Positions 35,355 through 64,000 of a stretch of 64,000 nucleotides of DNA are shown piece after piece. The translations under genes were made by a program, and so were the position numbers. The stretch spans positions 31,615 to 95,614 of the forward strand of contig CAWILD010000014.1 in assembly GCA_963836815.1 (NCBI GenBank), in the 5' to 3' direction. The DNA is from an uncultured Gemmatimonadales bacterium (GTDB taxonomy: Bacteria; Gemmatimonadota; Gemmatimonadetes; Gemmatimonadales; GWC2-71-9). The notes beneath the pieces are model-generated. The model saw only the letters and a program-made list of their open reading frames with translations, was not told the DNA's origin and did not search any database. Position 1 is the stretch's first letter; every line of letters begins with the position of its first letter.

Positions 35355-35362
35355 AAGGCGAC

Positions 35363-35851: not shown

Positions 35852-35922
35852 ATGAAGCCGGAGCGATGTTGCACGCTGGCCCAGGGCCAAGGGGGGCGCT
35901 CTCGCGCCCTGCGTGACGTGCT

Positions 35923-48836: not shown

Positions 48837-48976
48837 GTCTAACCCGCGCATGCAGCCGACAGACCGGATAAGCGCAGAGTTCCGCTCGGGCGGCACCCTC
48901 TGCGAGTGCTCTAAGGAACGAAGGTTTGTGCGGGCGGTAGCATGAGGGCCTGCAGCTGATGCGCAAGGCGCTAGGC
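48837..48976 (+). repeat. attC site (140 bp)
   Basis: GTCTAAC-ccgcgcatgcagccgac ... ggcctgcagctgatgcgcaaggc-GCTAGGC. Confidence 0.8.
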
Positions 48977-49008
48977 GGGCTCGCTATTGAGTTCTGGGAG
49001 GTGCCAAC

Positions 49009-49416
49009 ATGACCAGTCGGGATCAAACCCCCGTTGCCGAGGATCGGGACGCGGAGCTCCTCCGCTCGACCGAGCGCGAGCGACTCCGTGCGCTGGTCAC
49101 TGGTGATGTTGATCGGGCACGTCAGCTGCACTCCGAGGACTTTCAACTCATTAACCCTCTGGGCGGAGCGCTTTCGAAAGAGCAGTACCTGGGCGGCATC
49201 AGCGCCGGACAGATCCATTACCTGTACTGGGCGCCTGAATCGATCGCGGTTCGCCTCTACGGAGATGTGGCGGTGATCCGGTATCGGTCAGAGCTCGAAA
49301 TCGTTGTGCAGGGCCGCCACATTCCGCGTCAGCGGTATTGGCATACCGATCTATACGAGCGGCACGGGATGCAGTGGCAGGTCGTGTGGTCGCATGCGAC
49401 TGCCGCCGACTACTGA
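49009..49416 (+). CDS. DUF4440/SnoaL-like protein (cassette)
   Basis: GGGAGGTG precedes the ATG. ..ERLRALVTGDVDRARQLHSEDFQLINPLGGALSKEQYL..VAVIRY..YWHTDLYERHGMQWQVVWSHAT. Confidence 0.7.
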   Translation: MTSRDQTPVAEDRDAELLRSTERERLRALVTGDVDRARQLHSEDFQLINPLGGALSKEQYLGGISAGQIHYLYWAPESIAVRLYGDVAVIRYRSELEIVVQGRHIPRQRYWHTDLYERHGMQWQVVWSHATAADY

Positions 49417-49441
49417 TGGCGAACATCACGCCCAGCTCGCC

Positions 49442-49585
49442 GCCTAACCCGCGCATGCAGCCGGCAGGCCGGGGTGGGCCCAGAACTCCGCTCGGGCGCG
49501 GGGCTCCTGGAGGCGAGTCAGCGGAAGCGTAGGTTTGTGCGGGCGGTAGGATGATCGCCTGCAGCTGATGGCAAAGTCGTTAGAC
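49442..49585 (+). repeat. attC site (144 bp)
   Basis: GCCTAAC-ccgcgcatgcagccggc ... cgcctgcagctgatggcaaagtc-GTTAGAC. Confidence 0.8.
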
Positions 49586-49599
49586 GGACGCGGAAAGGC

Positions 49600-50076
49600 T
49601 CAGGCCGAGGCGGCGCGCCGATCGATCCGAGCTATGAAGCAGCCGGCCTCGGCGTTCCGCAAATGCGCATACTGAGCGGCTGGGAGCTCGAAGACCACAT
49701 CGAGGACGTCTTCGAAGCGGGCGGTGCCGACCCGCCGCTGAGCCAGGAGGGTCCCGGCCGCACCGTAGCCTTCGATCACGAGGGGTAGGGGTCTCAGCGC
49801 CTCGGGGAGTCCCCCGTCATCGTACCGCTCACAGGGGACGCGATGGATGAACACCGGCCCCGGTGCGGGCAAGGCTCCGGGATCCGTGAAAGGTTGGTAG
49901 GTGAAGAGCAGGCGCTCATCAGTCCCGACGGTGAAGGTTTGCAGGCATAGTCGGCACGGGCCGTATCCCGTTGCTACCTCGACATGGGCGGGATGGCCGT
50001 ACTGCGGCGAGCGGAGGGCGGCTCGCGCCGCCGTCGCCAGGCTGTCGGGAATGCCTTGAATCCGGTAGCGGTGCAT
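49600..50076 (-). CDS. DUF1203 domain protein (reverse-oriented in its cassette)
   Basis: MHRYRIQGIP..GYGPCRLCLQTF..ERLLFTYQPF..GPVFIH match the DUF1203 pattern as I recall it. Confidence 0.65.
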   Translation of the reverse strand: MHRYRIQGIPDSLATAARAALRSPQYGHPAHVEVATGYGPCRLCLQTFTVGTDERLLFTYQPFTDPGALPAPGPVFIHRVPCERYDDGGLPEALRPLPLVIEGYGAAGTLLAQRRVGTARFEDVLDVVFELPAAQYAHLRNAEAGCFIARIDRRAASA

Positions 50077-50149
50077 GCGGGAGCCCGGGAAGAGGTGCGA
50101 CGAAGCTAGATGCTTCGGCACGGGCGTGCCTCCCAAGTCATGCGCTCAA

Positions 50150-50270
50150 ATCGCGCGGCGCGCCACCGGTGCCGCGGGCGCGGGCGCCCGTGCGACTCCC
50201 GGTCGTCCTGACGCCGGAGGAGGTGCGCCGGGTGCTGGAGCAGATGTGGGGCACTACGCGGCTAGCGTTT
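50150..50270 (+). pseudogene. integron-integrase-like (IntI) fragment, ~40 codons
   Basis: ..[34 protein letters not shown] parallels the IntI1 segment ..[28 protein letters not shown] (from memory). No catalytic region follows, and it is cut off by the attC at 50310. Confidence 0.55.
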
Positions 50271-50309
50271 CAAGCGAGCGCTTCGCTTGGGTCAAAGGTC
50301 CCAGGTGCC

Positions 50310-50447
50310 GCCTAACCAGCGCATGCAGCCGGCAAGCGCTTCCAGGCAAGTCTCCGGTGCCCGCCACCCGCCGATGGCGGGCGGCGGAACGTAGGGTTGC
50401 TGCATGAGCGGGCGAGTCGCTTGCGGCTGATGCGCATTTCGTTAGGC
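50310..50447 (+). repeat. attC site (138 bp)
   Basis: GCCTAAC-cagcgcatgcagccggc ... cgcttgcggctgatgcgcatttc-GTTAGGC. Confidence 0.8.
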
Positions 50448-50495
50448 AGCCTTGAGATTCATTGATGCGAATCGGGTGATCAAGGAGGTGAAACA

Positions 50496-51206
50496 ATGTC
50501 GTACGTGGCAGTCGTCTTCGTCGTCGGGTTGCTCATCGCGATTCACGAGTATGGCCACCTGTTGGCGGCGAAACTGTGCGGGATCCCCGTCAAGCGATTC
50601 TCCATTGGCTTCGGGCCTAAGGTCCTCGAGGTCAAACACGGAGAAACATCGTATTGGCTCTCCTGGATTCCGATAGGCGGTTACGTCCTGCCGGCAATCG
50701 AGCAGGACGACTTCCGCGAACTTCCGGCGTATAAGCGAATCACATTTGCCCTTGGCGGTCCGATGGCCAACGTGATCGCGGCGTTCATGGGTTTATTCCT
50801 CCTCGGGCTCGCCCAGTTCAACTTGCCAGTATTCGGGGCCACATCGTTTGCCGCTACCCAACTGTGGACGGGACTGCAACAACAGATCTCTGGGCTTTCG
50901 GCGCTGGTTACTGATGTCGAGCAACTCACCGGGATCGTCGGAATCGTTGCTGTTGGAGGTGCCCAGTTCGGATCCACGCTCACCAGCTTGCTGACGTTCT
51001 CGGTGCTGATAAACCTCAGCCTGGCTGTCATGAACCTGTTGCCGCTACCTCCGCTCGACGGTGGGCGAATTCTCTTCTGCGTTCTCGAGAAGATCTACCG
51101 GCCTGTGGTCAGGGCCGAAGCTCCCTTGACCTTAGCCGGCTGGACGATGGTCTTGGCGTTGATGGTCTATCTGACGGTTCAGGATGTCGGCAGGATCTTG
51201 GCCTAG
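50496..51206 (+). CDS. M50 (site-2 protease) family membrane metalloprotease without PDZ domain (cassette)
   Basis: AAGGAGG precedes the ATG. HEYGH (HExxH) sits in the first TM region and NLLPLPPLDGG in a later TM region. 236 aa. Confidence 0.8.
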   Translation: MSYVAVVFVVGLLIAIHEYGHLLAAKLCGIPVKRFSIGFGPKVLEVKHGETSYWLSWIPIGGYVLPAIEQDDFRELPAYKRITFALGGPMANVIAAFMGLFLLGLAQFNLPVFGATSFAATQLWTGLQQQISGLSALVTDVEQLTGIVGIVAVGGAQFGSTLTSLLTFSVLINLSLAVMNLLPLPPLDGGRILFCVLEKIYRPVVRAEAPLTLAGWTMVLALMVYLTVQDVGRILA

Positions 51207-51255
51207 AGAGTATTCCAGCAGAAAACTGGATGGCGTCGTATCGGACCTGAGCGCT

Positions 51256-51341
51256 GCCTAACAGGCGCTTGCAGCCGACGGCGCGGGTATCATCGTGTGA
51301 AAGATCTGGGAGCGCGCCGCGGCTGAAGCGCGACGTTAGGC
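51256..51341 (+). repeat. attC site (86 bp)
   Basis: GCCTAAC-aggcgcttgcagccgac ... gcggctgaagcgcgac-GTTAGGC. Confidence 0.8.
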
Positions 51342-51354
51342 CTGCGAGAGACCA

Positions 51355-51783
51355 ATGATGACCACTAAGACCTATCTAGAGCCGACACAAGAGTCGGGCC
51401 GCGCATTCTTCACTCGCGGTATTTCCGGCAGCGTCGTAATGCTCAACTTGCTGCGGTTTCGTCCCGTTGCGGACTACTCAGCCACACCCGACCTCGCTCC
51501 GGCTTCGCCCATATCCGGAGAGACCGCCTACCGCCTATATATGGAGCACACTCTTCCGTACCTGAAGCAGTCCGGGGGTGAAGTGCTCTTTTTCGGCAAG
51601 GGCGGCGAGTTCCTGATTGGCCCGAGCGATGAGCGCTGGGACGCCGCCATGCTTGTGCGCCAAACCAACGTAGCTTCGTTCCTAGAGTTCGCCTCAAACC
51701 AAGAGTACCTCTCCGGCCTCGGGCATCGCCTCGCCGCGTTAGAGGATTCACGCTTGCTCCCGCTTATCGGGGAACAGGCCTAA
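51355..51783 (+). CDS. DUF1330 domain protein (cassette)
   Basis: ..VVMLNLLRFRPVADY..YRLYMEHTLPYLKQSGGEVLFFG.. The stop TAA lies inside the next attC R'' box. Confidence 0.65.
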   Translation: MMTTKTYLEPTQESGRAFFTRGISGSVVMLNLLRFRPVADYSATPDLAPASPISGETAYRLYMEHTLPYLKQSGGEVLFFGKGGEFLIGPSDERWDAAMLVRQTNVASFLEFASNQEYLSGLGHRLAALEDSRLLPLIGEQA

Positions 51784-51837
51784 CAAATCCATGCAGCCGA
51801 CGTGCGAAGCCGCACGCGGCTGATGGTGTCGTTAGGC
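51778..51837 (+). repeat. attC site, minimal 60-bp form
   Basis: GCCTAAC-aaatcc-ATGCAGCCG-acgtgcg-aagc-cgcacg-CGGCTGAT-ggtgtc-GTTAGGC. All boxes pair, with one unpaired G in the left inner box. Confidence 0.85.
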
Positions 51838-51851
51838 CGCGATCGGAAACT

Positions 51852-52247
51852 ATGGACTATGCCATCAAGCTCGTAGTTCTATCGGCGGCGACACTCGCTG
51901 CTCTCGCCGTCGGCGTCTCCGTGCTCGCGATGTATCGTCTTGTTGAGCCGCGGCGCCTCGCCATCATCTCGCTGGTATCGGCAGCCATCGCCGCGACGGT
52001 GTATCCTTGGCACGGGCTTCGGGCAGAATCCCTTCCTGCGTCGTTTCTTGTGTTCCTTTTCCTCGCCGTAACAGCTGCAGCTTCTGGTATCGCATGCCTG
52101 GCGTTGACCCGTCGGAGCGAGCACCCAGGGCTTGGGGGCCTAGAGATCGTCGTTGTGGTGGCCGTAATCGCCGCGTTGGTGCCGATGGTTCAGTTCTGGT
52201 TCGCAGGGGGCTTCGTTGCGCTTGCCCTCATCTTCGGCATGCACTAA
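51852..52247 (+). CDS. integral membrane protein, unknown function (cassette)
   Basis: 131 aa with four hydrophobic helices. Confidence 0.5.
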   Translation: MDYAIKLVVLSAATLAALAVGVSVLAMYRLVEPRRLAIISLVSAAIAATVYPWHGLRAESLPASFLVFLFLAVTAAASGIACLALTRRSEHPGLGGLEIVVVVAVIAALVPMVQFWFAGGFVALALIFGMH

Positions 52248-52273
52248 CGGTGCTGGCTATCGTCGGAACCGCA

Positions 52274-52369
52274 GCCTAACCAAGCGTTGGAGCGGTCCGC
52301 CGGAGTGCGGCGTTCGAAGGTAGTCCGCGGCATTCCGTCCGCCGGCCGCTCAACGCTCGGTCGTTAGGC
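52274..52369 (+). repeat. attC site (96 bp)
   Basis: GCCTAAC-caagcgttggagcggtccgccgg ... ccggccgctcaacgctcggtc-GTTAGGC. Confidence 0.8.
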
Positions 52370-52497
52370 GGTCGACATATGTCTTGGTCCAGGACCTCGC
52401 CGCCTGTACTTCTCTACAGCGTGCCACGCGTCGGGCATTTCTTGCGCGTTTCCCGCGATTGAGCTGGAGTCGGGGGGCAACGACCACTGGAGGCCGT

Positions 52498-52953
52498 ATG
52501 AAGGGACCTCGATATCCGGTCGGGCTTCTCCTCGTTTTGGTGGCGGCGGCATGTGGCGGCGCGCGCTCCGCGCGTACACCCACCCCGAGCCCAGGTGCTG
52601 CGCCTTTCATCGCGATCAAGGTCGACACCATGGCGTGGGGAGAGGCGAACATGCATCCGACGCTGCAGTGGTTCCGCAAGCGCCTGGTGAACGATACGAG
52701 TGCGCAGGGCATCTACGTCTCCCTGCTCCGCTATCCGGCGGGAGTGATTAACCCAAGTCACAGGCATCCGCATCCGCATGGGTTCTACGTTCTGCAGGGG
52801 CAACTAGTGACGAGTCGTGGCACCTTTGGGCCGGGAACGTTCGTCTGGTTCCCAGCTGGCGAAGTCATCGAACACGGCGCCGGCATCAAGGAGGACATGG
52901 TGGCGATCTTCATCAGCGGCGCGCCGTTCCAGATCGATTACGTGAACAGGTGA
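52498..52953 (+). CDS. cupin-domain lipoprotein (cassette)
   Basis: GGAGG precedes ATG 52498. Lipobox LVLVAAAC. ..INPSHRHPHPHGFYVLQGQLV..FVWFPAGEVIEHG. Confidence 0.7.
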   Translation: MKGPRYPVGLLLVLVAAACGGARSARTPTPSPGAAPFIAIKVDTMAWGEANMHPTLQWFRKRLVNDTSAQGIYVSLLRYPAGVINPSHRHPHPHGFYVLQGQLVTSRGTFGPGTFVWFPAGEVIEHGAGIKEDMVAIFISGAPFQIDYVNR

Positions 52954-53003
52954 GCCAGAGCACTGGGCGCTCCTACACAAGGCGGCGATTGGCCAAAGTC
53001 GCC

Positions 53004-53145
53004 GCCTAACCCGCTCATGCAGCCGACGGGCCGGAGGGGCGCGGAGTTCCGCGCGGGCGGCACCCTCCCACAGCGCCGCTAGGGAGGCCTAAGTTTGTGC
53101 GGGCGCCAGCACGAGGGCCCTCAGCTGATGCGCAAGTCGTTAGGC
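53004..53145 (+). repeat. attC site (142 bp)
   Basis: GCCTAAC-ccgctcatgcagccgac ... ggccctcagctgatgcgcaagtc-GTTAGGC. Confidence 0.8.
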
Positions 53146-53233
53146 GGCCGCCCGGCTTCCCCTCTAGGGCGCCTCTCTCTTCAGGAGGAGCTGGTCTGGC
53201 TGGTCCGTTCACCACACTGATTTCGGAGATCCA

Positions 53234-53614
53234 ATGGGTCGGCAGATTGTCTCTACATCGAAGGCGGCCAAGCCACCCGCAACCTACAGCCAGGCAGTGA
53301 AGGCCGCGGGCCTTGTGTTCGTCTCGGGCACAGCCCCGGCCGACCCTGCAACGGGCGGTTTGGTCGGCGCAACCATCCAAGAGCAAACACGGCAGTGTCT
53401 GACCAACATTGCCGCCATCCTACAAGAGGCCGGCAGCTCGCTTGAGAAGATTGTGAGTGCGACGGTGATTCTGGCGGAAGAGGAGGATTTTGGAGGCATG
53501 AATGAGGAATGGGTCCGATGGTTTCCCTCTAACCCTCCGGCTCGCCAAGGCGCCAAACTGCCTGTGCGGGTTCCCGGTCTGAAGGTCTCGATTGCCGCCA
53601 TTGCCGAGGCATAG
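53234..53614 (+). CDS. ridA: RidA/YjgF family reactive-intermediate deaminase (cassette)
   Basis: ..YSQAVKAAGLVFVSGTAP..TIQEQTRQCLTNIAAILQEAGSSLEKIV..PARQGAKLPV.. is the typical RidA pattern. Confidence 0.8.
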   Translation: MGRQIVSTSKAAKPPATYSQAVKAAGLVFVSGTAPADPATGGLVGATIQEQTRQCLTNIAAILQEAGSSLEKIVSATVILAEEEDFGGMNEEWVRWFPSNPPARQGAKLPVRVPGLKVSIAAIAEA

Positions 53615-53705
53615 GGGCCTTGATCCGCGTCTGGGCGGTCCCACTCGGCACTATCGGTCGCATTCGCTTCGGGTAAAGCGAGGGCGGGTATCCCCAACCG
53701 CGGCC

Positions 53706-53834
53706 GCCTAACCCGCAAATGCAGCCGACAAACGCGGCCTGGCCCGAACTCCGGTGATTGGCAGCCCTCCCAGAGGCGGTAAGGAACGTAGGTTTTTCTC
53801 AGGTCGTTTGCAGCTGATTTGCATTTCGTTAGGC
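53706..53834 (+). repeat. attC site (129 bp)
   Basis: GCCTAAC-ccgcaaatgcagccgac ... gtttgcagctgatttgcatttc-GTTAGGC. Confidence 0.8.
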
Positions 53835-54211
53835 GGCGCAGTCACCGCTCGTGGCAAGTACCAACGGTCGAATGATTCATCCTCGCGTTCGGCAGTAACC
53901 TTCTCTGCTCCGCGAAGCGACATCCGAAGCAGCCTCTCAACGACCGCGCCAAGCTCTGGGTACCTTCCCCGGTCTCGCATCATCCAGGCTCTGCTCAGCT
54001 CTCGTCCATTGCGCCAGATCGTGAAGGTTCGAACGTCCTCATCGCTGTCCAACACGTATCGAGGCTGAGCTGCTGCTAGTTCATCTGCATGTGCATCTAC
54101 CCGCAACCAGAACGCAGCCAACTCTGCTTCTTCCGCCTTCCCCTGCACGTACGTTGTGACCAACCGAGACGGACACCGGAGAGGGACGATCGTTCCGTCG
54201 TCCCAAAGCAC
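53708..54211 (-). CDS. hypothetical protein; 3' end of ORF reads through the attC
   Basis: 167-codon ORF. The first ~120 codons look coding (..FTIWRNGRELSRAWMMRDRGRYPELGAVVERLL..). The last ~40 are antisense attC sequence. Confidence 0.4.
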   Translation of the reverse strand: MLWDDGTIVPLRCPSRLVTTYVQGKAEEAELAAFWLRVDAHADELAAAQPRYVLDSDEDVRTFTIWRNGRELSRAWMMRDRGRYPELGAVVERLLRMSLRGAEKVTAEREDESFDRWYLPRAVTAPPNEMQISCKRPEKNLRSLPPLGGLPITGVRARPRLSAAFAG

Positions 54212-54277
54212 GGCGAGCGGCTGGTATCGCGGTCCAGACCGGAGCCCGGGTGGCCCAGAGAGCGCCGGCGTGATGCC

Positions 54278-54901
54278 TTAGACGGTGCGGGGTCGCCACG
54301 GCTCGTGCTCGTGCGCGAGCCAGACCAGCTCGGGGTCGAGCGCGCGCACCCGCAGCTGGCCTTCGGTGTGCGGCTCGTCGAGCTCGCCAAACCAAACCGC
54401 CACGTCGCCGCCAACGACGACCGGGCGCCCGCCAGTCTCGACGACGACGACCTGCATGCCGCGTGTGTGGCCCGGCGCCGGGACGAGCCGGAGCCCGGGA
54501 AGCAGCTCGAGTTCGCCGTCGACCGGCACGTACCGCACGCCGGGCGCCTCGACCCACTCGCGAATGGTGTAGTCGTCCTCGTTGCGCGCGTCGTCGAGCT
54601 CCCGACGCTGGACGTAGATCGGCCTGCCGGCGAAGAGGTGGTTGCCGCCGCAGTGGTCGAAGTGCAGGTGTGTGTTGACGACGATGTCGATGCCGGCGAG
54701 GTCGAAGTTCTGATTGCTCAGTGGACGGAGGCGGGGATCGAGGTCGGCCACCGCCGGGTGCAGCTCCGTCATGCCGGTGTCGACCAGCACGCGCGCATCG
54801 GGATGGTCGATGACGTGCACGTAGACCGGCATCCGCTCGCCCTCGGCGAGCAGGTCGGCAACGCGGACTGGCGTGATGGTGATTGAGGCGAGGGCGTTCA
54901 T
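54278..54901 (-). CDS. MBL-fold metallo-hydrolase (lactonase-like)
   Basis: THLHFDHCGG (HxHxDH), ..PAPGHTRG.., ..GDV... 207 aa. Confidence 0.8.
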   Translation of the reverse strand: MNALASITITPVRVADLLAEGERMPVYVHVIDHPDARVLVDTGMTELHPAVADLDPRLRPLSNQNFDLAGIDIVVNTHLHFDHCGGNHLFAGRPIYVQRRELDDARNEDDYTIREWVEAPGVRYVPVDGELELLPGLRLVPAPGHTRGMQVVVVETGGRPVVVGGDVAVWFGELDEPHTEGQLRVRALDPELVWLAHEHEPWRPRTV

Positions 54902-55416
54902 TGAGGACCGACCGCCGTGGTGGTGGCTGATTTCATCGCGATCACGTGCTCCACGAACTGATCGACGGCGATCTCGGTGCCCTGGTAGAAGCCCGACGCT
55001 TTGTTGTTCTCGAGGTCCGCTTCATCCCGGTGCAGCGCCGTGAAGACGTAGCGAGTGCCGGTTCCCACGGTTTCCATCGTAATGATGGCGGTAATCGGAA
55101 TGTCGTCAAAGACAGCCGGACGATAGCCGGGGAACAACATGGAGGTCCAGACAAGTCGCTCCATCGGAAGCACTTCCAGGAAACAGCCGAGGTTGGGAAC
55201 CTCCTGACCGTCTGCCATTGCGATGTCGATGCTGAAGATGCCGCCCGGTCGCACGTCCATTTCGGTTCGCGACACACGCCCCCAAGGCTTGGGCATGTAC
55301 CACTCCTTCAGATGCTCCGGTTTGGTCAACGCTTCCCAGACGAGCCGCGTGGGAGCGTCGATGAACCGTTCGATAGCGAAATCAAGTTTCGGATTGAGCG
55401 TGAATTGCTTGCTCAT
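54898..55416 (-). CDS. SRPBCC (AHSA1/START-like) domain protein
   Basis: ATG 55416 overlaps the arsR-like stop. ..IERFIDAPTRLVWEALTKPEHLKEWY..GGIFSI... ArsR-SRPBCC is a common gene pair. Confidence 0.7.
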   Translation of the reverse strand: MSKQFTLNPKLDFAIERFIDAPTRLVWEALTKPEHLKEWYMPKPWGRVSRTEMDVRPGGIFSIDIAMADGQEVPNLGCFLEVLPMERLVWTSMLFPGYRPAVFDDIPITAIITMETVGTGTRYVFTALHRDEADLENNKASGFYQGTEIAVDQFVEHVIAMKSATTTAVGPQ

Positions 55417-55766
55417 GATTCTGATTCCTTGTCCTTGAGTTGTTTGACGTATTGGTCGAACCGGTCCAGTCGAGCTTCCCACAACTGACGACGCGCGGTC
55501 AGCCAGTCTTCAACGACCTTGAACCGTTCGGGTGCGATCTCATACGTCCGCACTCGGCCGCGCTTTTGCGACCGCACCAGTCGGCTCTGTTCGAGCACCG
55601 AGAGGTGCTGCACGAACGACGGGAGTTGCATGTCGAACGGTGCCGCCAGTTCGCTGACGGTGGCTGGTCCGACAGACAGTCGCTCCAGGACTTTCCGCCG
55701 CGTCGGGTTGGACAAGGCGTGAAACACGTCGTCAGCGGCTGCGGAGTGAACCATTTGCGACACCAT
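55413..55766 (-). CDS. ArsR/SmtB family transcriptional regulator
   Basis: ..VFHALSNPTRRKVLERLSVGPATVSELAAPFDMQLPSFVQHLSVLEQSRLVRSQKRGRVRTYEI is a winged HTH of the ArsR type. Confidence 0.85.
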   Translation of the reverse strand: MVSQMVHSAAADDVFHALSNPTRRKVLERLSVGPATVSELAAPFDMQLPSFVQHLSVLEQSRLVRSQKRGRVRTYEIAPERFKVVEDWLTARRQLWEARLDRFDQYVKQLKDKESES

Positions 55767-55975
55767 CCAAATGCTCGGGTTATCCGATCTGACCGAGAGA
55801 TTCTACAGCCATGGAATACTTCTGTCAATACCTAAGTATTTGCCATGATGGAAGCGCGGCCCCCCACGCAGAGACAAGAGCTCCGGCGAAGCCGGTTTCC
55901 CTTCATCGACTGGACTGCGACCTTTGCTGGCCGGGATGCAGTCAGGGCCGCGCATGGCGAGCGCTTCGCTCTGCG

Positions 55976-56074
55976 GCCTAACGAACGTTGCAGCTGACAA
56001 GCGATCTGATGATTGCGCCACGCTGCGCGCGGCGCTTCTATTGACTCGCTTGCAGCTGAACTTGGGCGTTAGGC
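55976..56074 (+). repeat. attC site (99 bp)
   Basis: GCCTAAC-gaacgttgcagctgac ... cgcttgcagctgaacttgggc-GTTAGGC. Confidence 0.8.
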
Positions 56075-56205
56075 CGACACTACGGACATCTTGTCTTCGC
56101 AAGCGCGCTATAGCAGCGGAAGTCCGCCCCACGGTAGGCGACACGCCAGATCACTGACCGCCACGTTGAATAACTCGCACGGGCAGGCGAGTAGGGAGAT
56201 GGATC

Positions 56206-56532: not shown

Positions 56533-56549
56533 CGTATCAGGCGCGTGCG

Positions 56550-56689
56550 GCCTAACCCGCGCATGCAGCCGACGGGCCGGAAATGTCCCGGGGCTCCGCC
56601 CGGGCGCAGCGTCCCGTGAGGACGCTGCGGAACGTAAGTTTGTGTGGCACGGGCATGATGGCCCGCAGCTGATGCGCAAGTCGTTAGAC
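56550..56689 (+). repeat. attC site (140 bp)
   Basis: GCCTAAC-ccgcgcatgcagccgac ... ggcccgcagctgatgcgcaagtc-GTTAGAC. Confidence 0.8.
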
Positions 56690-56740
56690 GGCGCGTCCCC
56701 CCTTCTTGCTCGCCCGTGCTGACAGAGTGACTTTGCCCTC

Positions 56741-57299
56741 ATGGCGCGAACCATCCTCGTGATTCACGGTGCTGGGGAGCCCCGGCGGCGGCGAGGCAAG
56801 GTGTATTGGGAGTCGCTACTCGAGGAAACTCTGGGGCGGGGCTATCGCGTCCAGGCACCACGCATGCCCCGGCCAGAGCACCCACACTACTGGACTTGGG
56901 CTCGCCGTATCGATGAACTCATGGGGAGTACTCGCGCGCCTATCCTTGTGGGTCATTCCTTCGGAGCTTCGGTGCTTCTAAAATATCTCGCGGAGACTGT
57001 GCGCCGCCCTGCTTTGGCTGGCCTGTTTCTGATCGCCACGCCATTTCTGGGGGCCGGACTTCCCGGAGTTTGCGCTACCGCCTGACTTCGGGACGCGCCT
57101 CGGTGACCTATCGCCTATCTATCTGTACCACAGCCGGGACGACGCCGAGGTACCGTTCGAGCATCTGGAGCGCTATCGGCGTGCCCTCCCTTACGCCACG
57201 GTGCGGGCTCTGGACGATCGCGGCCACGAGTTCAATCAGGCGCAGTTCCCGGAACTTGCGGCCGATATTCGCGGCCTCGGGCCGCGGCGCGCCGTCTAA
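56741..57299 (+). CDS. alpha/beta hydrolase (YdeN/RBBP9-like) cassette; one frame break
   Basis: ILVIHGAGE.., nucleophile elbow VGHSFGA. After a shift at 57044-57053: ..YLYHSRDDAEVPFEHLERY..DDRGHEF... The stop TAA lies inside the next attC R'' box. Confidence 0.7.
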
Positions 57300-57426
57300 C
57301 CCGCGCATGCAGCCGACAAACGCGGGGCGCCGCAGTGGCGGCCCGCGAGCCACGCTCCGCGTGGCCATTCAGTGGAAGCGTTTGTTTGTAGGGTGTCGTT
57401 TGCAGCTGATGCGCATTGCGTTAGGT
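57294..57426 (+). repeat. attC site (133 bp)
   Basis: GTCTAAC-ccgcgcatgcagccgac ... gtttgcagctgatgcgcattgc-GTTAGGT. Confidence 0.8.
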
Positions 57427-57501
57427 GGCCACGAGCAACCGTGGCCAGGTGAGCGGTTGTGACGTTTCGGCGCCGCTCTGACTCTGAAGCAGGAAGGCAC
57501 C

Positions 57502-57879
57502 ATGAACCACTTCGCTTGGCCGGAGCAGGTGGCCACCCTGAACAACATGCTAGATATCCTTGAAGGACAGGTGACGGCCGGGGATGTGGGCACGCCCGGC
57601 TTAGCTGAGTTCAAGAGCGCTCTCGACGATTTGCGGCTCCGGACTTGGGGTCTGCTCACGGCGATCAACGCGGATGATCCCCACGCGTTTCAAGAGCGGT
57701 TTCGCACCCACCGGGGAATCGAGATGTGCCGTGCCCTCACCACCGACCTGCGGACGGGCAAGCTGAGCAGTCGCCAACCGGACCTGCCGGCCCTGGGCGG
57801 CGCAGCGCGGGATCTATCGGCCGCAGTGAAGGAGGCGACGCGCAAACCTTCGAAGCGACGCGGCAAAGGCGCCGTCTGA
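57502..57879 (+). CDS. hypothetical helical protein (cassette)
   Basis: AGGAAGG precedes the ATG. 125 aa. No family recognised. Confidence 0.45.
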   Translation: MNHFAWPEQVATLNNMLDILEGQVTAGDVGTPGLAEFKSALDDLRLRTWGLLTAINADDPHAFQERFRTHRGIEMCRALTTDLRTGKLSSRQPDLPALGGAARDLSAAVKEATRKPSKRRGKGAV

Positions 57880-57888
57880 GCGCCGGCG

Positions 57889-58029
57889 GCCTAACCCGCG
57901 CATGCAGCCGACGGGCCGGACCTGTCCCAGGCTCCGCCCATGCGCTTCGTCCCTTGAGGACGAAGCGGAACGAATGTGTGTGTGGGCGCGAGCATGGATC
58001 GCCTGCAGCTGATGCGCATTTCGTCAGGC
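57889..58029 (+). repeat. attC site (141 bp)
   Basis: GCCTAAC-ccgcgcatgcagccgac ... cgcctgcagctgatgcgcatttc-GTCAGGC. Confidence 0.8.
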
Positions 58030-58050
58030 TGACCCAAACAGGTGGACTCA

Positions 58051-58488
58051 ATGGATGAGTTTCTCCAGGCCGCTCTCGAGGAAGCGAGGCAGGGCCTTGC
58101 CGAGGGCGGCATCCCAATCGGCGCTATCCTCGTGCATTCTCGGGGGATCCTCGGGCGTGGACACAATCAGCGAGTGCAGCGTGGCAGCGCCGTTCTTCAC
58201 GCGGAAATGGACGCGCTGGAGCGAGCCGGCCGACTGGCAGCGCCTGTGTATCGGGCAAGCACTCTGTACACCACACTTTCACCCTGCGCGATGTGCAGCG
58301 GGGCCATCCTCCTCTACGGCATTCGGCGCGTGGTGATCGGCGAAAACCGCACGTTCCGGGGCGAGGAGGAGCTGCTGCGCTCGCGCGGGGTGCTGGTGGA
58401 AGTTGTCGATGATCCTAGCTGTGCCGCCCTGCTTGCGGCTTTCGTGCGCGCGCACCCGGAGTTGTGGAACGAAGATATCGGCCACTAG
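58051..58488 (+). CDS. CMP/dCMP-type zinc deaminase (cytosine/guanine deaminase-like) cassette
   Basis: HAEMDAL (zinc His/Glu) and SPCAMCSGA (PCxxC). ATG 58051 is preceded by AGGTGG. GTG 58042 is an alternative start. Confidence 0.8.
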   Translation: MDEFLQAALEEARQGLAEGGIPIGAILVHSRGILGRGHNQRVQRGSAVLHAEMDALERAGRLAAPVYRASTLYTTLSPCAMCSGAILLYGIRRVVIGENRTFRGEEELLRSRGVLVEVVDDPSCAALLAAFVRAHPELWNEDIGH

Positions 58489-58499
58489 TGAAGCGGGCA

Positions 58500-58524
58500 G
58501 CCTAACCCGCGCATGCAGCCGACG
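58500..58524 (+). repeat. attC site, left part (split by insertion)
   Basis: GCCTAAC-ccgcgcATGCAGCCGACG is followed directly by the left terminal inverted repeat. It continues at 62261. Confidence 0.8.
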
Positions 58525-58557
58525 GGGGTATAAAGATAACTCGAAAAAATGTCAGTA
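58525..58557 (+). repeat. left terminal inverted repeat
   Basis: ggggtataaagataactcgaaaaaatgtcagta. A second GATAACTC lies 20 bp inside. Confidence 0.75.
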
Positions 58558-58663
58558 GCGCTATTCGGATAACTCATCACGCTCCAGCAGCTACCGCGGT
58601 GTATGCTGGCGATCTCATGCCGGCGAAGACAGATTTCGAGCATCCCCTTCATATGGCTTGGCC

Positions 58664-58940
58664 GTGACCGACGTGACGGCCTCCGCATTGGCCAACGCCC
58701 TTCGCGATCGCTACCGCCTTGAGCGTGGCTGCGGACGCGGCGGGATGGCGACGGTGTATCTTGCCGAGACCTGAAGCACGGCCGCGAGGTCGCGCTCAAG
58801 GTCCTTCGCCCGAAGTGGCCGCGGCGCTCGGTACCGAGCGGTTCCTGCAAGATCCATATCAGCGCCCGGCTCGACCACCCCCACATCCTCACCTTGATAG
58901 ACTAGGGCCAGAAGACGGTTGGTGTGGTACGTACTGCGGT
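58664..58940 (+). pseudogene. Ser/Thr kinase N-terminal fragment (frameshifted, stop-containing)
   Basis: ..[22 protein letters not shown]|..[23 protein letters not shown].. is readable only by switching frames. It is paralogous to the N-terminus of the kinase at 19367-22274. Confidence 0.65.
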
Positions 58941-58989
58941 TAGGCATCTTTTAGGAACGGTAGCAGCGATGCAGGGGTAGTGAAGCTCT

Positions 58990-59870
58990 ACTGATGCACG
59001 GCAGGCGGAGCGATCCATCCTGGCCGCGGCGAGCTGGTTGGCGAAGGGCCGCTGGACGTGGTAGCGCCAGGTATCAGCAATACAGCCTTCGTTGGGGTCT
59101 TTCTCGGGCTAGTGCTCGTGCTCGTGCTCTTCCACCTGTTCTCATCAATGGGGTACTCAGGACTCGGATAGTGTGCTCAGCACGTGCTCTGAGGCCTTCG
59201 AATGACCACTCTCCCTTCTTCATCGAGGAAATACAAGCAGTAGCGCTTTGCGGAGATCATGTAGCCGCAGAGGTCACGCGTTTGCTCGCGTACGTGTTCT
59301 CTTTCTCGAGCTTCAGGAGAGAACCACTCACCACGGGCCGTACGGGTTGAGGCTGTCCAGGCGCTTGATGATCTTGTTGACGCAGCCCAGCTAAGGGCAC
59401 GTATCGCTGGCCGACCATCGCGCTTCTTGTAAGGCCGACAGGGACAGGGTACGAGCTCACCCCGCCGGGAGGCTACAATGGCTATGGAATCTCTGTCGGT
59501 GAACAGGTAGGTCCCACGGCGGCTGTCACCATCCGCTCGATAATCGCGAGCATGAGCCGCGCCGCGCGTTCGTGATCCAGGCTGCCAGCGGCGTGGAAAC
59601 AGAACTCCCCCGGATCCTCCGGGTGCTGGGTTTGACAGCTGAAGGCCCCCTCTCTCTCCATGGCCCCGGACTCGGGCCGGTTTCCCTGGGGCGAGCGATC
59701 GCGGATCGAACTGGGCAAAGACGCCGTAGCTGCCGCTGTTAGCTATCACCTTCAGCAACTTCTCCACCCGCTGGCGCTCACGCGGACTGATTTTGGCGTC
59801 GGGTAGGCTCTTGATCCGATGGCGTTCCTCGATCACATGGTCGGCGAGGAACACCTGGCCGCCGCTAAGC
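58990..59870 (-). pseudogene. family B DNA polymerase remnant (protein-primed type), palm/thumb region only, multiple frame breaks
   Basis: In N-to-C order on the minus strand: KLLKVIANSGSYGVFAQ (motif B, Kx3NSxYG), ..AARLMLAIIERMV..GTYLFTDRDSIAIV (motif C, degenerate YxDTDS), ..GYMISAKRYCLY.. (KxY), ..KASEH... At least 5 frame switches are needed. The N-terminal exonuclease half is absent. Confidence 0.65.
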
Positions 59871-59926
59871 GTGAGCTGGACGAGGGGCTGCGGGACCAAT
59901 TTCTCCATCACCCCCCAGGAGGAGCT

Positions 59927-60400
59927 ATGCGTGCCGAACAACAACTTGCTGATCACCTCTGGTTTCTCAACTCGCTTGTGCGCATCCGAGTGGCCCATTC
60001 CGCCGGAGCCGACGGATTCTCCGTCATCGAATTCCAGGCCCCATTCGGCGATTCACCACCCCTGCACATTCACTACATGGAGGACGAGTTGTTCCATGTC
60101 TTGGAGGGTGAGTTCCGCTTCACGATCGGAGGCGAGGAAATGCGCGCTGGCCCGGGTGAGCTGATTCTGGCTCCGAAGGGCGTACCTCACACCTTTCGAA
60201 TCGAATCCGCCGCTGGAGGTCGCTATCTAATCGTGACCACGCACGGCGATTTCGAACGCTTTGTCCGGGAGCTGAGCCGCCGGGCCGAGCGTGCGGAATT
60301 GCCAGCACCTTCAGGACCACCTACTCCAGAGCAGATCCAGGCGCTGGGTGCCGCGGCCATGCGCCACAACGCCGAGATTGTGGGCCCCCCGCTCACTTGA
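59927..60400 (+). CDS. cupin domain protein (cassette captured inside the element)
   Basis: CAGGAGGAG precedes ATG 59927. ..SPPLHIHYMEDELFHVLEGEF..LILAPKGVPHTFRI.. Followed by an attC lacking its left end. Confidence 0.7.
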   Translation: MRAEQQLADHLWFLNSLVRIRVAHSAGADGFSVIEFQAPFGDSPPLHIHYMEDELFHVLEGEFRFTIGGEEMRAGPGELILAPKGVPHTFRIESAAGGRYLIVTTHGDFERFVRELSRRAERAELPAPSGPPTPEQIQALGAAAMRHNAEIVGPPLT

Positions 60401-60416
60401 TCTCGACCCTGTGTTT

Positions 60417-60527
60417 CGGACGGTCCCGAGCTCCGCTCGGGCGCCGCGTCCCTTTAGGACGCGGCGGAACGAAGGATTGTGCGGGCGCGGCCATGATCGC
60501 CCGCAGCTGATGCGCATTGCGTTAGGC
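60417..60527 (+). repeat. attC site lacking its left (R''/L'') end
   Basis: cggacggtcccgagctccgctcggg..ggaacgaaggattgtgcgggcg..cgcccgcagctgatgcgcattgc-GTTAGGC. Confidence 0.65.
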
Positions 60528-60613
60528 GGACGCGCGAGCATCTTGGTAGGATAAGACACGACTCGCATCACTATCGCGGATACGTGCATGCATTCAGGCC
60601 TAATCGTTTCTGA

Positions 60614-62041
60614 TTGCGACGGCACCTTGGTCGACAGCAAACCCGGCGCGAACACGGTCTGGCTGGAAGTCGCTGCCGAGTGACTCATATTCCATTTGCC
60701 ACCACCGGCGCCTACCCGGTACGTGCGGGCAATCGCGTCCACCCGCTCATTGATGGCGAGCCTGCATTTCGCCGGGTTTGTGACGCCATTGATCAGGCCC
60801 TAGCGCGCGTGTGGGTCGCCGTCACGTTTCTCTGGGCCAGCTTTCAGATGCCCGATGGTCGCGGTTCGTTCTTTGACGTACTGACACGAGCGCGCCAGCG
60901 TGGACTCGACGTCCGGGTGCTATTTTGGCGACCCGATGATGCGACCGCACATCTGCGGACTAATGCGTTCTGGGGGTCGCCCGCGCATGTCGCGCTGCTG
61001 GAGCAGCAGGCATCGGAGATCAGCATTCGCTGGGATCGCGCGCACCCTGGATTCTGTCAACATCAAAAACTCTGGCTCATCGACGTTGGGTTGGAAACGG
61101 CCTGTGCGTTTGTCGGTGGCATCAATCTCAATCCCCATTCGGTGGTTGCCCCCGGCCATCGTGGCGCTAAACACAATCACGACATGTATCTCGAGATCAG
61201 CGGTTCGGCAGTCACAGACGTCCACCACAACTTTGTGCAACGCTGGAACGAGGCCAGCGAACGGGACGAGGCGGACGGTCGGTGGGGACCCGATGCTGAT
61301 CGCGATCTCGCCTTTCCAGACCGGGTCGCGGCGGTACGTGGATCCACCGTCGCCCAAGTGCAACGGACGATCCATCCTGGCCGCTACGCCAACACCCACC
61401 CCACTCCCGGCGGGGCTCCGTTTGCCATCGCCGACGGTGAGTTCTCCAATCGCGACCAGTACATCCATGCCATCCGCGCTGCCCGTGAGTATATCTATCT
61501 TGAGAACCAAGCCATCAGTGTGCGGCCAATCCTTGAAGAGCTTGTAGCCGCGGTGAAGCGCGGCGTGGCGGTTGTCCTAGTGTTGCCGACCGTGGCCAAC
61601 AGCATCGACGCACCTGCGGATCCCCACGGCGAGCTGTTCCGTGACGAACGCCGCACGCTGGCGCGCACGTCGCATTTCACTCTAGCAGGACTGGCCGGAC
61701 CAGATGCCAGTGGCGCACGCCAACCCGTTCACGTGCATGCCAAACTTATGATCATTGATGATGTCTGGGCGACGGTCGGCTCCTGCAACCTCCACCGATA
61801 TTCCATGTATGGTAACAGTGAGCTCAACATCGCCTTCGCCGATGCGGTGACGGTGCGCGCATTACGCTGCGAACTCCTAGCGGAGCATCTCGATCAGGAC
61901 ACATCCGCGCTCGATGGCCGATCGGCGCTCTGCGTGTTTCGGACCGTGGCTGAGCAGAATGCGGGTCGCCGGGACGGTGGAGATCCCGACTGGGAAGGAA
62001 TCGCCTGCGCGATGGATCCACTTCAGTGGTGGGCAAGCTGA
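60614..62041 (+). CDS. phospholipase D / HKD-superfamily protein (cassette inside the element)
   Basis: Two HKD motifs: CQHQKLWLIDVG..GGINL and HVHAKLMIIDD..VGSCNL. GTG 60680 is a plausible alternative start. Confidence 0.8.
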   Translation: MRRHLGRQQTRREHGLAGSRCRVTHIPFATTGAYPVRAGNRVHPLIDGEPAFRRVCDAIDQALARVWVAVTFLWASFQMPDGRGSFFDVLTRARQRGLDVRVLFWRPDDATAHLRTNAFWGSPAHVALLEQQASEISIRWDRAHPGFCQHQKLWLIDVGLETACAFVGGINLNPHSVVAPGHRGAKHNHDMYLEISGSAVTDVHHNFVQRWNEASERDEADGRWGPDADRDLAFPDRVAAVRGSTVAQVQRTIHPGRYANTHPTPGGAPFAIADGEFSNRDQYIHAIRAAREYIYLENQAISVRPILEELVAAVKRGVAVVLVLPTVANSIDAPADPHGELFRDERRTLARTSHFTLAGLAGPDASGARQPVHVHAKLMIIDDVWATVGSCNLHRYSMYGNSELNIAFADAVTVRALRCELLAEHLDQDTSALDGRSALCVFRTVAEQNAGRRDGGDPDWEGIACAMDPLQWWAS

Positions 62042-62102
62042 ACGGCGCGATCGTCGGCCGGTCAATGACAAGGAAGAGAACCCTAATATCTCGAATGGCG
62101 CC

Positions 62103-62145
62103 ACCTAACCCGCTAATGCAGCCGACAATCGCGGGCGGTTCGGAC
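62103..62145 (+). repeat. attC left end (R''/L'') truncated on the right
   Basis: ACCTAAC-ccgctaatgcagccgacaatcgcgggcggttcggac, then unrelated sequence. Confidence 0.6.
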
Positions 62146-62164
62146 TTCTTCGGATCGATAGCCG

Positions 62165-62204
62165 GGTGAACTAGCTACCCCTCTCTGTCTCTTAACCCCT
62201 CGAA
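62165..62204 (+). repeat. single arm of the 22302-22385 palindrome family
   Basis: ggtgaactagctacccctctctgtctcttaacccctcgaa, compared with ggtgaacagcggcaggctatctatctcttaacccttcgaa. Confidence 0.5.
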
Positions 62205-62227
62205 CGTTTGAAGGCTGGCTGAAGGGG

Positions 62228-62260
62228 TACTGACATTTTTCCGAGTTATCTATATACCCC
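62228..62260 (-). repeat. right terminal inverted repeat
   Basis: tactgacatttttccgagttatctatatacccc is the reverse complement of the left repeat with 2 mismatches. Confidence 0.75.
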
Positions 62261-62388
62261 ATGCAGCCGACGGGCCGGACCTGTCCCGGGCTCCGCCCAG
62301 GCGCTTCGTCCTTGGAGGATGAAGCGGAACGTAGGTTTGTGCGGGCGGCAACCTGATGGCCCCGCAGCTGATGCGCATGTCGTCAGGC
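62261..62388 (+). repeat. attC site, right part (continuation of 58500-58524)
   Basis: ATGCAGCCGACGggccggacctgtcccggg ... cccgcagctgatgcgcatgtc-GTCAGGC. Confidence 0.8.
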
Positions 62389-62496
62389 AGCGAGAAGACC
62401 CTATGATGCAATCAGGGGTCATGACAGTGAGGCTGCTTCCGACAATCACCGAACTTGGCGTCGCTAGGGCTCGGCTGTTGCAAACGAGGAGGAGCC

Positions 62497-63210
62497 GTGA
62501 CTGGCAAAGAGAAGGGGAAGTCAGTTAACCGAACCGCACGAGTCGCAGGGTTCCTGTATCTCCTTGTGTTCCCATTCGCCATCTTCAGCTTGAAGGTGCG
62601 GGACACACTCATTGTACCCGGAGATGCCGCAGCAACAGCCAGTAATATCATGGCTTCCGAAGGGCTGTTTCGTGGCGGCATTGCTGCCTGGCTCCTTAGC
62701 CAGACGATCTTCATATTCCTGCTCCTGGCCTTATACAAGCTGCTCAAGCCGGTCAACCGGAACGTTGCTTTGCATATGGTCGTACTGCTCCTGGTTGGTG
62801 TGCCTATCGCGTTGATCAACGAGCTCAACCAGTTTGCCGCCCTGCTGCTATTGAGCGGCGCCGACTACCTGACGGCGGTCGAAGCAGGTCAGTTGCATGC
62901 TCAGATGATGTTTCATCTCGATCTGCACGAATACGGGATCAACATCGCCCAGATCTTCTGGGGCCTCTGGCTGTTGCCCTTCGGTTATCTGGTTCTCAGG
63001 TCGGGTTTCCTTCCCCAAATTCTGGGCGTCCTATTAATGATTGGATGTTTCGGGCATCTGATGGATGTCGTTACAGCCGTGGTTTTTCCCAACTTCGACG
63101 TAACAGTGACTCAGTTTACCTCAATAGGGGAATTCCTACTTCCCTTGTGGTTGGTGGTTAAGGGCGTAGATGTCAAGCGGTGGGAAAGCCGTGCCCTTGA
63201 ACCTGCCTGA
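62497..63210 (+). CDS. DUF4386 family membrane protein (cassette)
   Basis: GAGGAGGAG precedes GTG 62497. ..ARVAGFLYLLVFPFAIFS.. and six hydrophobic helices. The ORF track start of 62455 is less likely. Confidence 0.65.
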   Translation: MTGKEKGKSVNRTARVAGFLYLLVFPFAIFSLKVRDTLIVPGDAAATASNIMASEGLFRGGIAAWLLSQTIFIFLLLALYKLLKPVNRNVALHMVVLLLVGVPIALINELNQFAALLLLSGADYLTAVEAGQLHAQMMFHLDLHEYGINIAQIFWGLWLLPFGYLVLRSGFLPQILGVLLMIGCFGHLMDVVTAVVFPNFDVTVTQFTSIGEFLLPLWLVVKGVDVKRWESRALEPA

Positions 63211-63297
63211 ATGGGCCGGCTGCAGAATGGACGGGGATTTTCGTTGGCAGTAAGGGAGCTGTGGGTGGACCAGCCGCGACCATCGCGCCGGCTCGCT

Positions 63298-63404
63298 GCC
63301 TAACCCGCGCATGCAGCCGGCGGGCCCGGAGGAGCGCTGGCCTCCGCTCGGCCTTGTGCGCGGGTCGGCTTGATGGCCCGCAGCTGATGCGCATTCCGTT
63401 AGGC
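63298..63404 (+). repeat. attC site (107 bp)
   Basis: GCCTAAC-ccgcgcatgcagccggc ... ggcccgcagctgatgcgcattcc-GTTAGGC. Confidence 0.8.
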
Positions 63405-63437
63405 CGCAAGTCGTAGACAGCAGCGAAGGGGGAGCTC

Positions 63438-63863
63438 GTGCTCGTTTCGGGTCGGCTGTCGCGGGATGGTGCTACGTTGCGCAGGATCGCCCTGGCCTAT
63501 CCCGAAGCCTATGAAGAGATGCCCTGGGGCCATCACGCGATCAAGGTGAAGGGGAAGGCCTTCGTCTTTCTGGCGGCGGACCAGGCGACGTTCTCGCTCT
63601 CCGCCAAGCTGCCCTCGTCGGCCGGGGTGGCCCTCCAACTCCCGTTCGCGTCGCCGACAGAGTACGGCCTAGGGCGCAGTGGGTGGGTGACGGCGCGGTT
63701 TCCCCGGACCGCCCGGTTGCCGGTCGACATCCTCGGCATGTGGATCGACGAAAGTTATCGCGCGCTCGCGCCAAAGCGCCTACACGCGCAGCTAGAGGAC
63801 GCCTCGGCACCGGGTGCACCACGCAGTCCCAGGACCAGGAAGAAGCCGGCAAGCCGCCGCTGA
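63438..63863 (+). CDS. MmcQ/YjbR family protein (cassette)
   Basis: AAGGGGGAG precedes the GTG. ..[39 protein letters not shown].. is the typical YjbR pattern. Confidence 0.7.
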
Positions 63864-63870
63864 GCTTGCA

Positions 63871-63912
63871 GCCTAACCCGCGCATGCAGCCGACTGGGCC
63901 GGCCCAACCGGG
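63871..63912 (+). repeat. truncated attC (left end only)
   Basis: GCCTAAC-ccgcgcatgcagccgactgggccggcccaaccggg. No R' is found before the next gene start. Confidence 0.55.
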
Positions 63913-63925
63913 CTTGGAGGAACGG

Positions 63926-64000
63926 GTGGATCTAAAGCAGCTTGAAACCGACATTCTCTCCTTTGTGCGTCGGGCCTACCCGAACATCGAGGTTCGGGTC
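63926..64000 (+). CDS. hypothetical protein, 5' end only (runs off window)
   Basis: GGAGGAA lies 3 nt before GTG 63926. VDLKQLETDILSFVRRAYPNIEVRV is open to the window edge. Confidence 0.35.
   Translation, partial: MDLKQLETDILSFVRRAYPNIEVRV

Follow-up and report, generated by a model that had tools for sequence, protein, structure and literature searches.

The 64-kb window analysed here, a stretch of contig CAWILD010000014.1 from a soil Gemmatimonadales bacterium, carries at positions 48837-63903 a chromosomal array of repeats, all on the + strand, that is very probably a cluster of attC sites lacking an integron integrase (CALIN). The array comprises 13 complete attC sites (60-144 bp), one split site, two internal pieces and a truncated end site (numbered as in Table 1), and from 48837 to the window end a repeat was found 3' of nearly every + strand open reading frame (ORF). 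According to Cury 2016 (PMC4889954), a CALIN has a minimum of two attC sites lying on one strand with less than 4 kb between them, without a nearby integron integrase. The present array holds 14 same-strand sites less than 4 kb apart, with no intI adjoining. As the repeats are attC sites and the window is without intI, CALIN is the correct label.

An earlier note on this DNA, made from its letters alone, had described co-oriented repeats alternating with ORFs at 48837-63926, with characteristic outer boxes and three one-off variants of the right box, and had read them as attC sites. The repeats were recovered in that place and orientation, as complete, split, partial and truncated copies, and the boxes had been read accurately. 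Every array copy opened with GCCTAAC or GTCTAAC, and 11 of the 13 complete sites ended in a GTTAGGC, GTTAGAC or GTTAGGT R' box; the one-off variants were GCTAGGC (48970-48976) and GTCAGGC (58023-58029 and 62382-62388). The consensus of the window copies was GCCTAACCCGCGCATGCAGCCGAC for the left arm and GCAGCTGATGCGCAAGTCGTTAGGC for the right arm. Alternation with ORFs also held: one + strand ORF occupied each interval, the exceptions being 49586-50447 (one minus-strand ORF) and 53835-56074 (three to four minus-strand ORFs). The largest gaps between sites were 2.1 kb (53834 to 55976) and 3.7 kb across an insertion, the latter bridged by partial sites. The G+C content was 0.70 in the first 16 kb of the window and 0.60-0.65 beyond 48.8 kb. 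The repeats extend beyond the range given in the note, with seven further copies or remnants at 17-36 kb.

Sites of the attC type work as single-stranded DNA, in which the bottom strand folds so that R' pairs with R'' and L' with L'' (PMC5027507). A structural scan for RYYYAAC...GYYRRRY spaced 50-160 nt, combined with the pairing energy of the adjacent arms, detected 15 complete sites in the window (26 hits on both strands); in 10 shuffled controls the mean was about 1.1 hits. Folding of the bottom (-) strands with DNA parameters, a check that had been proposed beforehand, gave the expected attC shape: the R stem has 7 bp, the unpaired spacer is asymmetric, and two bulges of one base each break the L stem; fold z-scores of the short sites were -5 to -7. 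The spacer between R and L boxes measured 2 nt on one arm and 3-6 nt on the other. Window copies were 60-152 bp long overall, with the variation in the centre.

In the arm alignment of the 15 window sites, 93% of cells were paired (R helix 95%, L helix 92%), and both sides had changed in 11 of 24 pairs overall and in 11 of the 17 pairs of the L helix. This level of covariation was reached by none of 500 shuffles, and pairing dropped to 25-38% when the partner was slid by 1-3 columns. The covariation test was made on the 15 window sites; 415 sites from other loci had been preselected by arm pairing, which made them circular for this purpose, and were left unused. The only frequent top-strand mismatch was C.A (columns 21/39), which is a G.T wobble on the - strand and thus fits the - strand as the folded, working strand.

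Folds and alignment both placed the bulges at bottom-strand positions 16 and 23, a stem of 6 bp lying between the two. Position 16 was G on the top strand and C on the bottom strand, invariant in 15/15 aligned window sites; the single unpaired G that had been reported earlier is this base, whereas the second one, at position 23 (usually A on the top and T on the bottom strand), had gone unmentioned. In published attC sites the flipped-out bases lie on the L'' arm of the bottom strand, position 16 being "usually a G" and 23/24 a conserved T, and for IntI1 to recombine a site efficiently, the first flipped-out base and the last must be separated by a 6-bp stem (PMC5027507). In the window the bulges are on the arm adjoining the ORF end, so the - strand is the bottom strand and the + strand ORFs are correctly oriented. 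An Rfam scan of the window, with a database that has no attC family, yielded nothing but a tRNA and a c-di-GMP riboswitch.

The earlier note had described the 60-bp site at 51778 as box-for-box colinear with class 1 attC sites, and comparison with a published site bore this out. The class 1 aadA-type site, GTCTAACAATTCGTTCAAGCCGAC...GCGGCTTAACTCAGGCGTTAGAT overall, is arranged as GTCTAAC-AATTCGTT-C-AAGCCG-A-C ... GCGGCTT...GTTAGAT (PMC2117344), and the window site as GCCTAAC-AAATCCAT-G-CAGCCG-A-C ... GCGGCTG...GTTAGGC. The two share a 7-nt R'' box followed by 8 nt, the bulge at 16, the 6-bp stem, the bulge at 23, a variable loop and a right arm of the form GCGGCT...GTTAGRY, and the hexamer GCCGAC at positions 19-24 is identical. 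Unlike the class 1 site, the window sites have C and not G at position 16, most copies are more than twice as long, and host, cargo and setting are unrelated.

The exact 24-nt left arm was found in at least 115 genome stretches, nearly all of them from soil or sediment Gemmatimonadales metagenome-assembled genomes. An nhmmer profile made from 200 family sites of other genomes, with the window and a sister strain left out, matched all long window sites with E = 1e-16 to 3.5e-33 and also mapped the partial copies; such matches show membership in this attC family and not a match to the curated IntegronFinder model. Among the family members from other genomes (loci L001-L115), bottom-strand position 16 was C in 380 of 383, unlike the G usual in attC sites. 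Boxes, pairing, bulges, covariation and family profile agree on the attC identity that the earlier note had proposed.

Homologues of IntI were detected in several family loci by tblastn with an IntI1 sequence that served as probe only. The IntI of locus L006 scored 424 bits on the NCBIfam integron integrase model TIGR02249 (cutoff 265), and in loci L006, L013 and L029 the attC array begins 0.4-1 kb downstream of intI on the same strand. In these Gemmatimonadales intI is co-oriented with the cassettes and upstream of them, whereas in class 1 integrons it is divergent. Despite a frameshift in the L029 intI, the array that this gene heads measures at least 57 kb. On contig CAVSPJ010000003.1, an intI is followed downstream by co-oriented attC sites between 133 kb and at least 190 kb, and on large contigs the family copies stand in a few clusters and are not scattered. 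Judged by sequence comparison, the repeats appear to be the attC type of a real integron lineage, and recombination of the window sites by IntI, as folded bottom strands, is predicted.

No intI was found in the 64-kb window by tblastn with IntI, apart from an IntI-like scrap of 30 amino acids (aa), in line with the earlier note, which had seen no integrase. With Gemmatimonadales IntI as query, two window matches were obtained, this scrap and a recombinase at 16220-17437 (24.5% identity). The latter, a 405-aa tyrosine recombinase on the - strand, was considered as the missing integrase and rejected: it scored 38.8 bits on TIGR02249 (cutoff 265) and is unrelated to the array, being the integrase of a tRNA-Leu island. 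The scrap sits within the second cassette, is also present in the sister strain and may be a relic of an intI; unlike the intI pseudogenes of Cury 2016 (PMC4889954), it is too short to cover more than 50% of the profile. A complete integron has an intI, which is not present in the window, and attI and the cassette promoter (Pc) are not recognisable without one. As no Pc is in view, most cassettes, except any that have a promoter of their own, are probably silent.

Each unit of the array is a gene cassette without a promoter, made up of an ORF and, after it, the attC. The - strand would act as the bottom strand and form an imperfect hairpin, with C16 and T23 flipped out and the 6-bp stem between them. 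The tyrosine recombinase IntI cuts in the R' AAC triplet (top strand G|TT), and the cassette circle is excised or inserted (PMC5027507). Since no IntI is nearby, cassettes of this array could move only through an IntI whose gene lies at another place in the genome.

Information on such movement came from the sister strain, a 77.6-kb contig (L116) reached through an exact YjbR protein match and 98.5-99.1% identical to the window over shared segments. Four cassettes (M50 peptidase, two unknowns and cupin) occupy window 50446-53000, where the sister strain instead has 1.4 kb with an IS110-type transposase remnant and a 66-aa ORF. At the left junction the two sequences diverge right after GTTAG of attC 3; at the right junction about 99% identity resumes right after GTTAGGC of attC 7, and attC 7 itself shows about 10 differences between the strains. 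That both junctions lie at R' boxes is as an exchange by G|TT crossover predicts, and is consistent with it. Because strains that are 99% identical differ by whole cassettes with junctions at R' boxes, an IntI encoded elsewhere in the genome may well have acted recently on the array.

Some observations weigh against a functional attC cluster. Three sites are mutated in the R' AAC triplet, the only stretch conserved across all attC sites (PMC5027507), and for two of the long G+C-rich sites the folds were not superior to those of shuffled sequences (z +0.2 and +0.6), so that some of the array may be inert. Homologous recombination within the final 25 nt of the attC copies could be an alternative source of the cassette-block difference. 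At attC 1 the R' box is GCTAGGC in the window and GTTAGGC in the sister strain; the window form is a recent mutation in the crossover triplet. Together, the mutated R' triplets in 3 of 14 array sites, compared with 14 of 383 family members, and one frameshifted cassette gene suggest that the array is partly decaying.

Taken further, the same facts would make the array an inert fossil, with the strain differences produced by homologous recombination between attC copies or by inserted elements. This is unlikely, even though it would accommodate the GCT and GTC triplets at a frequency above that of the family, the truncated terminal site and other half sites, the frameshifted gene and the absence of IntI from view, and even though copies that are 75-90% alike could support homologous recombination. 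Both junctions of the cassette block fall at R' boxes and not at arbitrary points of the repeats, 11 of the 14 sites keep their boxes, bulge geometry and compensatory pairing, and in other genomes different arrays share identical cassettes.

The CALIN is probably a fragment of a once larger chromosomal integron, broken by rearrangements and insertions; indications of this are the end attC, which is truncated, the scrap resembling IntI, the insertion and, at 17-36 kb, attC remnants that lie in either orientation. Integron fragmentation is among the proposed origins of CALINs (Cury 2016, PMC4889954). In the sister strain the terminal attC is truncated identically, and a further degenerate remnant lies behind the gene that comes next, some 1.2 kb outside the window. 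Beyond this remnant, 9 kb of ordinary genes contain no integrase, and no IntI was found within 10 kb to the right of the array in this strain, from which alone the right flank was judged.

The earlier note had left the choice between a sedentary integron and a CALIN, and it is the second that stands. It is highly improbable that a complete sedentary chromosomal integron is present, with intI and attI just beyond the window and the array as its distal part. Relatives do carry very long arrays, as on CAVSPJ010000003.1, and the co-oriented remnants at 23.6 and 34.6-36.0 kb could have been left by a single older and longer array. In the relatives, however, intI lies upstream on the same strand, and here the 48 kb upstream of the array contain no IntI. 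The 4.8 kb directly to the left are host-like (G+C 0.69; response-regulator oxidoreductase, histidine kinase and small membrane proteins), and at its other end the array stops in a truncated attC, followed in the sister strain by ordinary genes only. A family of repetitive extragenic palindromes (REP) or miniature inverted-repeat transposable elements (MITE) unrelated to integrons, for which copies that are palindromic, intergenic, G+C-rich and many per genome might be taken, is ruled out because the family arrays adjoin genuine IntI genes (in three other genomes they start beside a protein passing the integron integrase model), while boxes, bulge positions and spacing fit the published attC rules, pairing covaries, and the copies form co-oriented arrays, each after an ORF and in few clusters on large contigs, so that the scatter without ORF alternation named earlier as the refuting outcome was not seen.

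The least ordinary feature of the region, for which the evidence is thin, is an unclassified 3.7-kb insertion in attC 13. This site is intact in the sister strain, so the 3.7 kb at 58526-62260 are an insertion in the window's strain. They are bounded by inverted repeats of 38 nt (58525-58562 and 62223-62260; 89% complementary), which read GGGGTATAWAGATAAC... The insertion point is fixed in the L'' box of attC, after ATGCAGCCGACG, and in one orientation: the left junction attC...ATGCAGCCGACG|GGGGTATAAAG is shared with locus L024 and the right junction TATATACCCC|ATGCAGCCGACGGG... with locus L114, the orientation relative to attC being the same. These two loci show single ends only, with no right end within 9 kb in L024 and a contig of only 4 kb for L114. 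An exact search of metagenome contigs with the full 33-nt inverted repeat gave no match; a shorter pattern gave one 1.2-kb contig, in which two element ends abut across ATGCAGCCGACG plus 1-2 nt, as would be expected of a circle or of a tandem junction. Neither a transposase nor a recombinase was found in the 3.7-kb insertion or in the partial L024 and L114 copies. Just inside the left end, at 58650-58900, lie fragments of a frameshifted Ser/Thr kinase N-terminus (...RYRLERGCGRGGMATVYLAE...), and similar DNA is present in loci L031 and L096.

Known insertion elements that target attC sites are the IS1111-attC group and the group IIC-attC introns. The present insertion resembles them in lying at a fixed attC position and orientation. 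Unlike them, it has 38-nt terminal inverted repeats, a 12-bp duplication and cassette passengers, and lacks a DEDD transposase or reverse transcriptase. Tentatively, it might represent an undescribed family of mobile elements specific for the L'' box of attC, making a 12-bp duplication and carrying cassettes as passengers. If so, such elements would move integron cassettes between arrays without IntI.

Concerning the cargo, the earlier statement that most of it is of unknown function was too strong: physiological roles aside, most cassette ORFs matched Pfam families, and three ORFs had no match. No match to a known antibiotic-resistance family was seen among the cassette products. The structural scan and the profile detected no attC within the 2.2-kb minus-strand cassette. 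The PLD cassette was 92-98% identical to cassettes at six other loci, and other window cassettes recurred in arrays of other genomes at 84-96% identity, so that all recurrences together span 84-98%.

The attC copies outside the array lie partly in the segment 16073-31176, which appears to be a 15-kb integrative island with the tyrosine recombinase as its integrase. Its cargo includes a 946-aa Ser/Thr kinase with TPR repeats, a methyltransferase, a trypsin-like protease, a galactose-oxidase-like protein and the inverted attC copies. A c-di-GMP-I riboswitch (26681-26799; 45 bits, gathering score 35) was detected upstream of the trypsin-like protease gene (27041-28012), inside the island. The 66-aa cassette of the sister strain is 85% identical to an inverted cassette in the island (18785-19117). 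Downstream of the complete attC at 35923-36028, the segment 36069-38789 contains small + strand ORFs (AdoMet_dc-like, RibD_C, cupin and DMP19) of cassette-like size and composition. No attC was detected between the + strand ORFs at 36-39 kb by structural scan or profile, and these ORFs may be cassettes whose attC sites have decayed.

Table 1. Features of the array, its insertion, the other attC copies and related loci (positions refer to the window unless a locus is named).
Feature	Position	Strand	Remarks
attC 1	48837-48976	+	140 bp; R' mutated to GCTAGGC; profile E 5e-31
DUF4440 ORF	49009-49416	+	135 aa
attC 2	49442-49585	+	144 bp; R' GTTAGAC
DUF1203 ORF	49600-50136	-	178 aa; 158 aa in the sister-strain gene call
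IntI-like scrap	50175-50264	+	30 aa; 57% identical to residues 134-163 of Gemmatimonadales IntI; E 1e-3
attC 3	50310-50447	+	138 bp; R' is left junction of strain-variable cassette block
Peptidase M50 ORF	50496-51206	+	236 aa
attC 4	51256-51341	+	86 bp; compensatory L-box changes; fold z -6.2
ORF without Pfam match	51355-51783	+	142 aa
attC 5	51778-51837	+	60 bp; arms colinear with class 1 attC; fold z -7.0
Hydrophobic ORF without Pfam match	51852-52247	+	131 aa
attC 6	52274-52369	+	96 bp; L boxes of differing sequence, equal pairing
Cupin ORF (Cupin_7)	52384-52953	+	
attC 7	53004-53145	+	142 bp; R' is right junction of strain-variable cassette block
RidA/L-PSP family ORF	53234-53614	+	126 aa
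attC 8	53706-53834	+	129 bp
Three-gene cassette	53835-55975	-	metallo-beta-lactamase fold 54278-54901; AHSA1 54898-55482; ArsR-type helix-turn-helix 55413-55766
attC 9	55976-56074	+	99 bp; divergent arms; fold z -6.3
GYD domain ORF	56206-56532	+	108 aa
attC 10	56550-56689	+	140 bp; profile E 3.5e-33
Frameshifted alpha/beta-hydrolase cassette	56741-57462	+	ORFs 56741-57085 and 57070-57462
attC 11	57294-57426	+	133 bp; R' GTTAGGT
ORF without Pfam match	57502-57879	+	125 aa
attC 12	57889-58029	+	141 bp; R' mutated to GTCAGGC
Cytidine/deoxycytidylate deaminase fold ORF	58042-58488	+	148 aa
attC 13, left piece	58500-58526	+	model positions 1-27
Insertion	58525-62260	+	3.7 kb; splits attC 13; ATGCAGCCGACG duplicated at both sides
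Insertion contents	59819-62153		cupin cassette 59819-60400; attC right part 60421-60527; PLD-like cassette 60614-62041; attC left part 62104-62153
attC 13, right piece	62260-62388	+	model positions 13-141; R' GTCAGGC
DUF4386 membrane protein ORF	62455-63210	+	
attC 14	63298-63404	+	107 bp
YjbR family ORF	63438-63863	+	141 aa
Truncated last attC	63871-63903	+	model positions 1-33 only; joined to DUF2695 gene
tRNA-Leu	16073-16156		last 55-58 nt repeated at about 31121-31176
Tyrosine recombinase	16220-17437	-	405 aa; beside tRNA-Leu
attC copies in tRNA-Leu island	17382-17483, 18737-18836, 19114-19265	-	first two truncated, third complete
Isolated attC right part	23604-23702	+	model positions 41-140; after methyltransferase gene
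Second, smaller attC cluster	34627-36028	+	34627-34753 without R''; 35309-35337 left arm only; 35923-36028 complete
Sister-strain variable position	L116 1961-2203, 3064-3402		IS110-type remnant (Pfam Transposase_20); 66-aa ORF cassette
Element ends	58525-62260; L024 ~1377-1445; L114 1111-1284; L117 1073-1179		
intI in relatives	L006 869-2104; L013 7323-7997; L029 3276-4206		

In its anatomy the locus resembles the CALINs described by Cury 2016 (PMC4889954), with same-strand attC sites less than 4 kb apart, no integrase, mostly non-resistance cassettes, insertion elements or rearrangements, and IntI-bearing integrons with the same attC type in related genomes. Unlike most of these, it has 14 sites, more than 10 being present in only 6.6% of them. 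It is also similar to sedentary chromosomal arrays such as the VCR array of Vibrio cholerae (PMC5027507), in which a lineage-specific attC type is long (about 130-145 bp) and alike from copy to copy, including much of the variable terminal structure, and accompanies many small ORFs of diverse or unknown function. It differs from these in that no intI, attI or Pc adjoins the array and in that sites of 60-107 bp with other arm sequences are mixed in.

Gemmatimonadota have already been recorded as an integron-carrying phylum (PMC8618304), and no paper on the anatomy of Gemmatimonadales integrons was found in the literature searched. The locus is an ordinary CALIN, a defined class of element, in a phylum with recorded integrons, and it leaves the understanding of integrons unchanged. 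It documents a well-preserved, cassette-polymorphic attC array for the Gemmatimonadales, members of an abundant soil phylum, and the related loci add an attC type specific to the lineage, in which the first flipped-out base is C, a co-oriented intI and arrays of at least 57 kb. These features can be used in tuning integron finders and in assigning soil metagenomic cassettes to their hosts.

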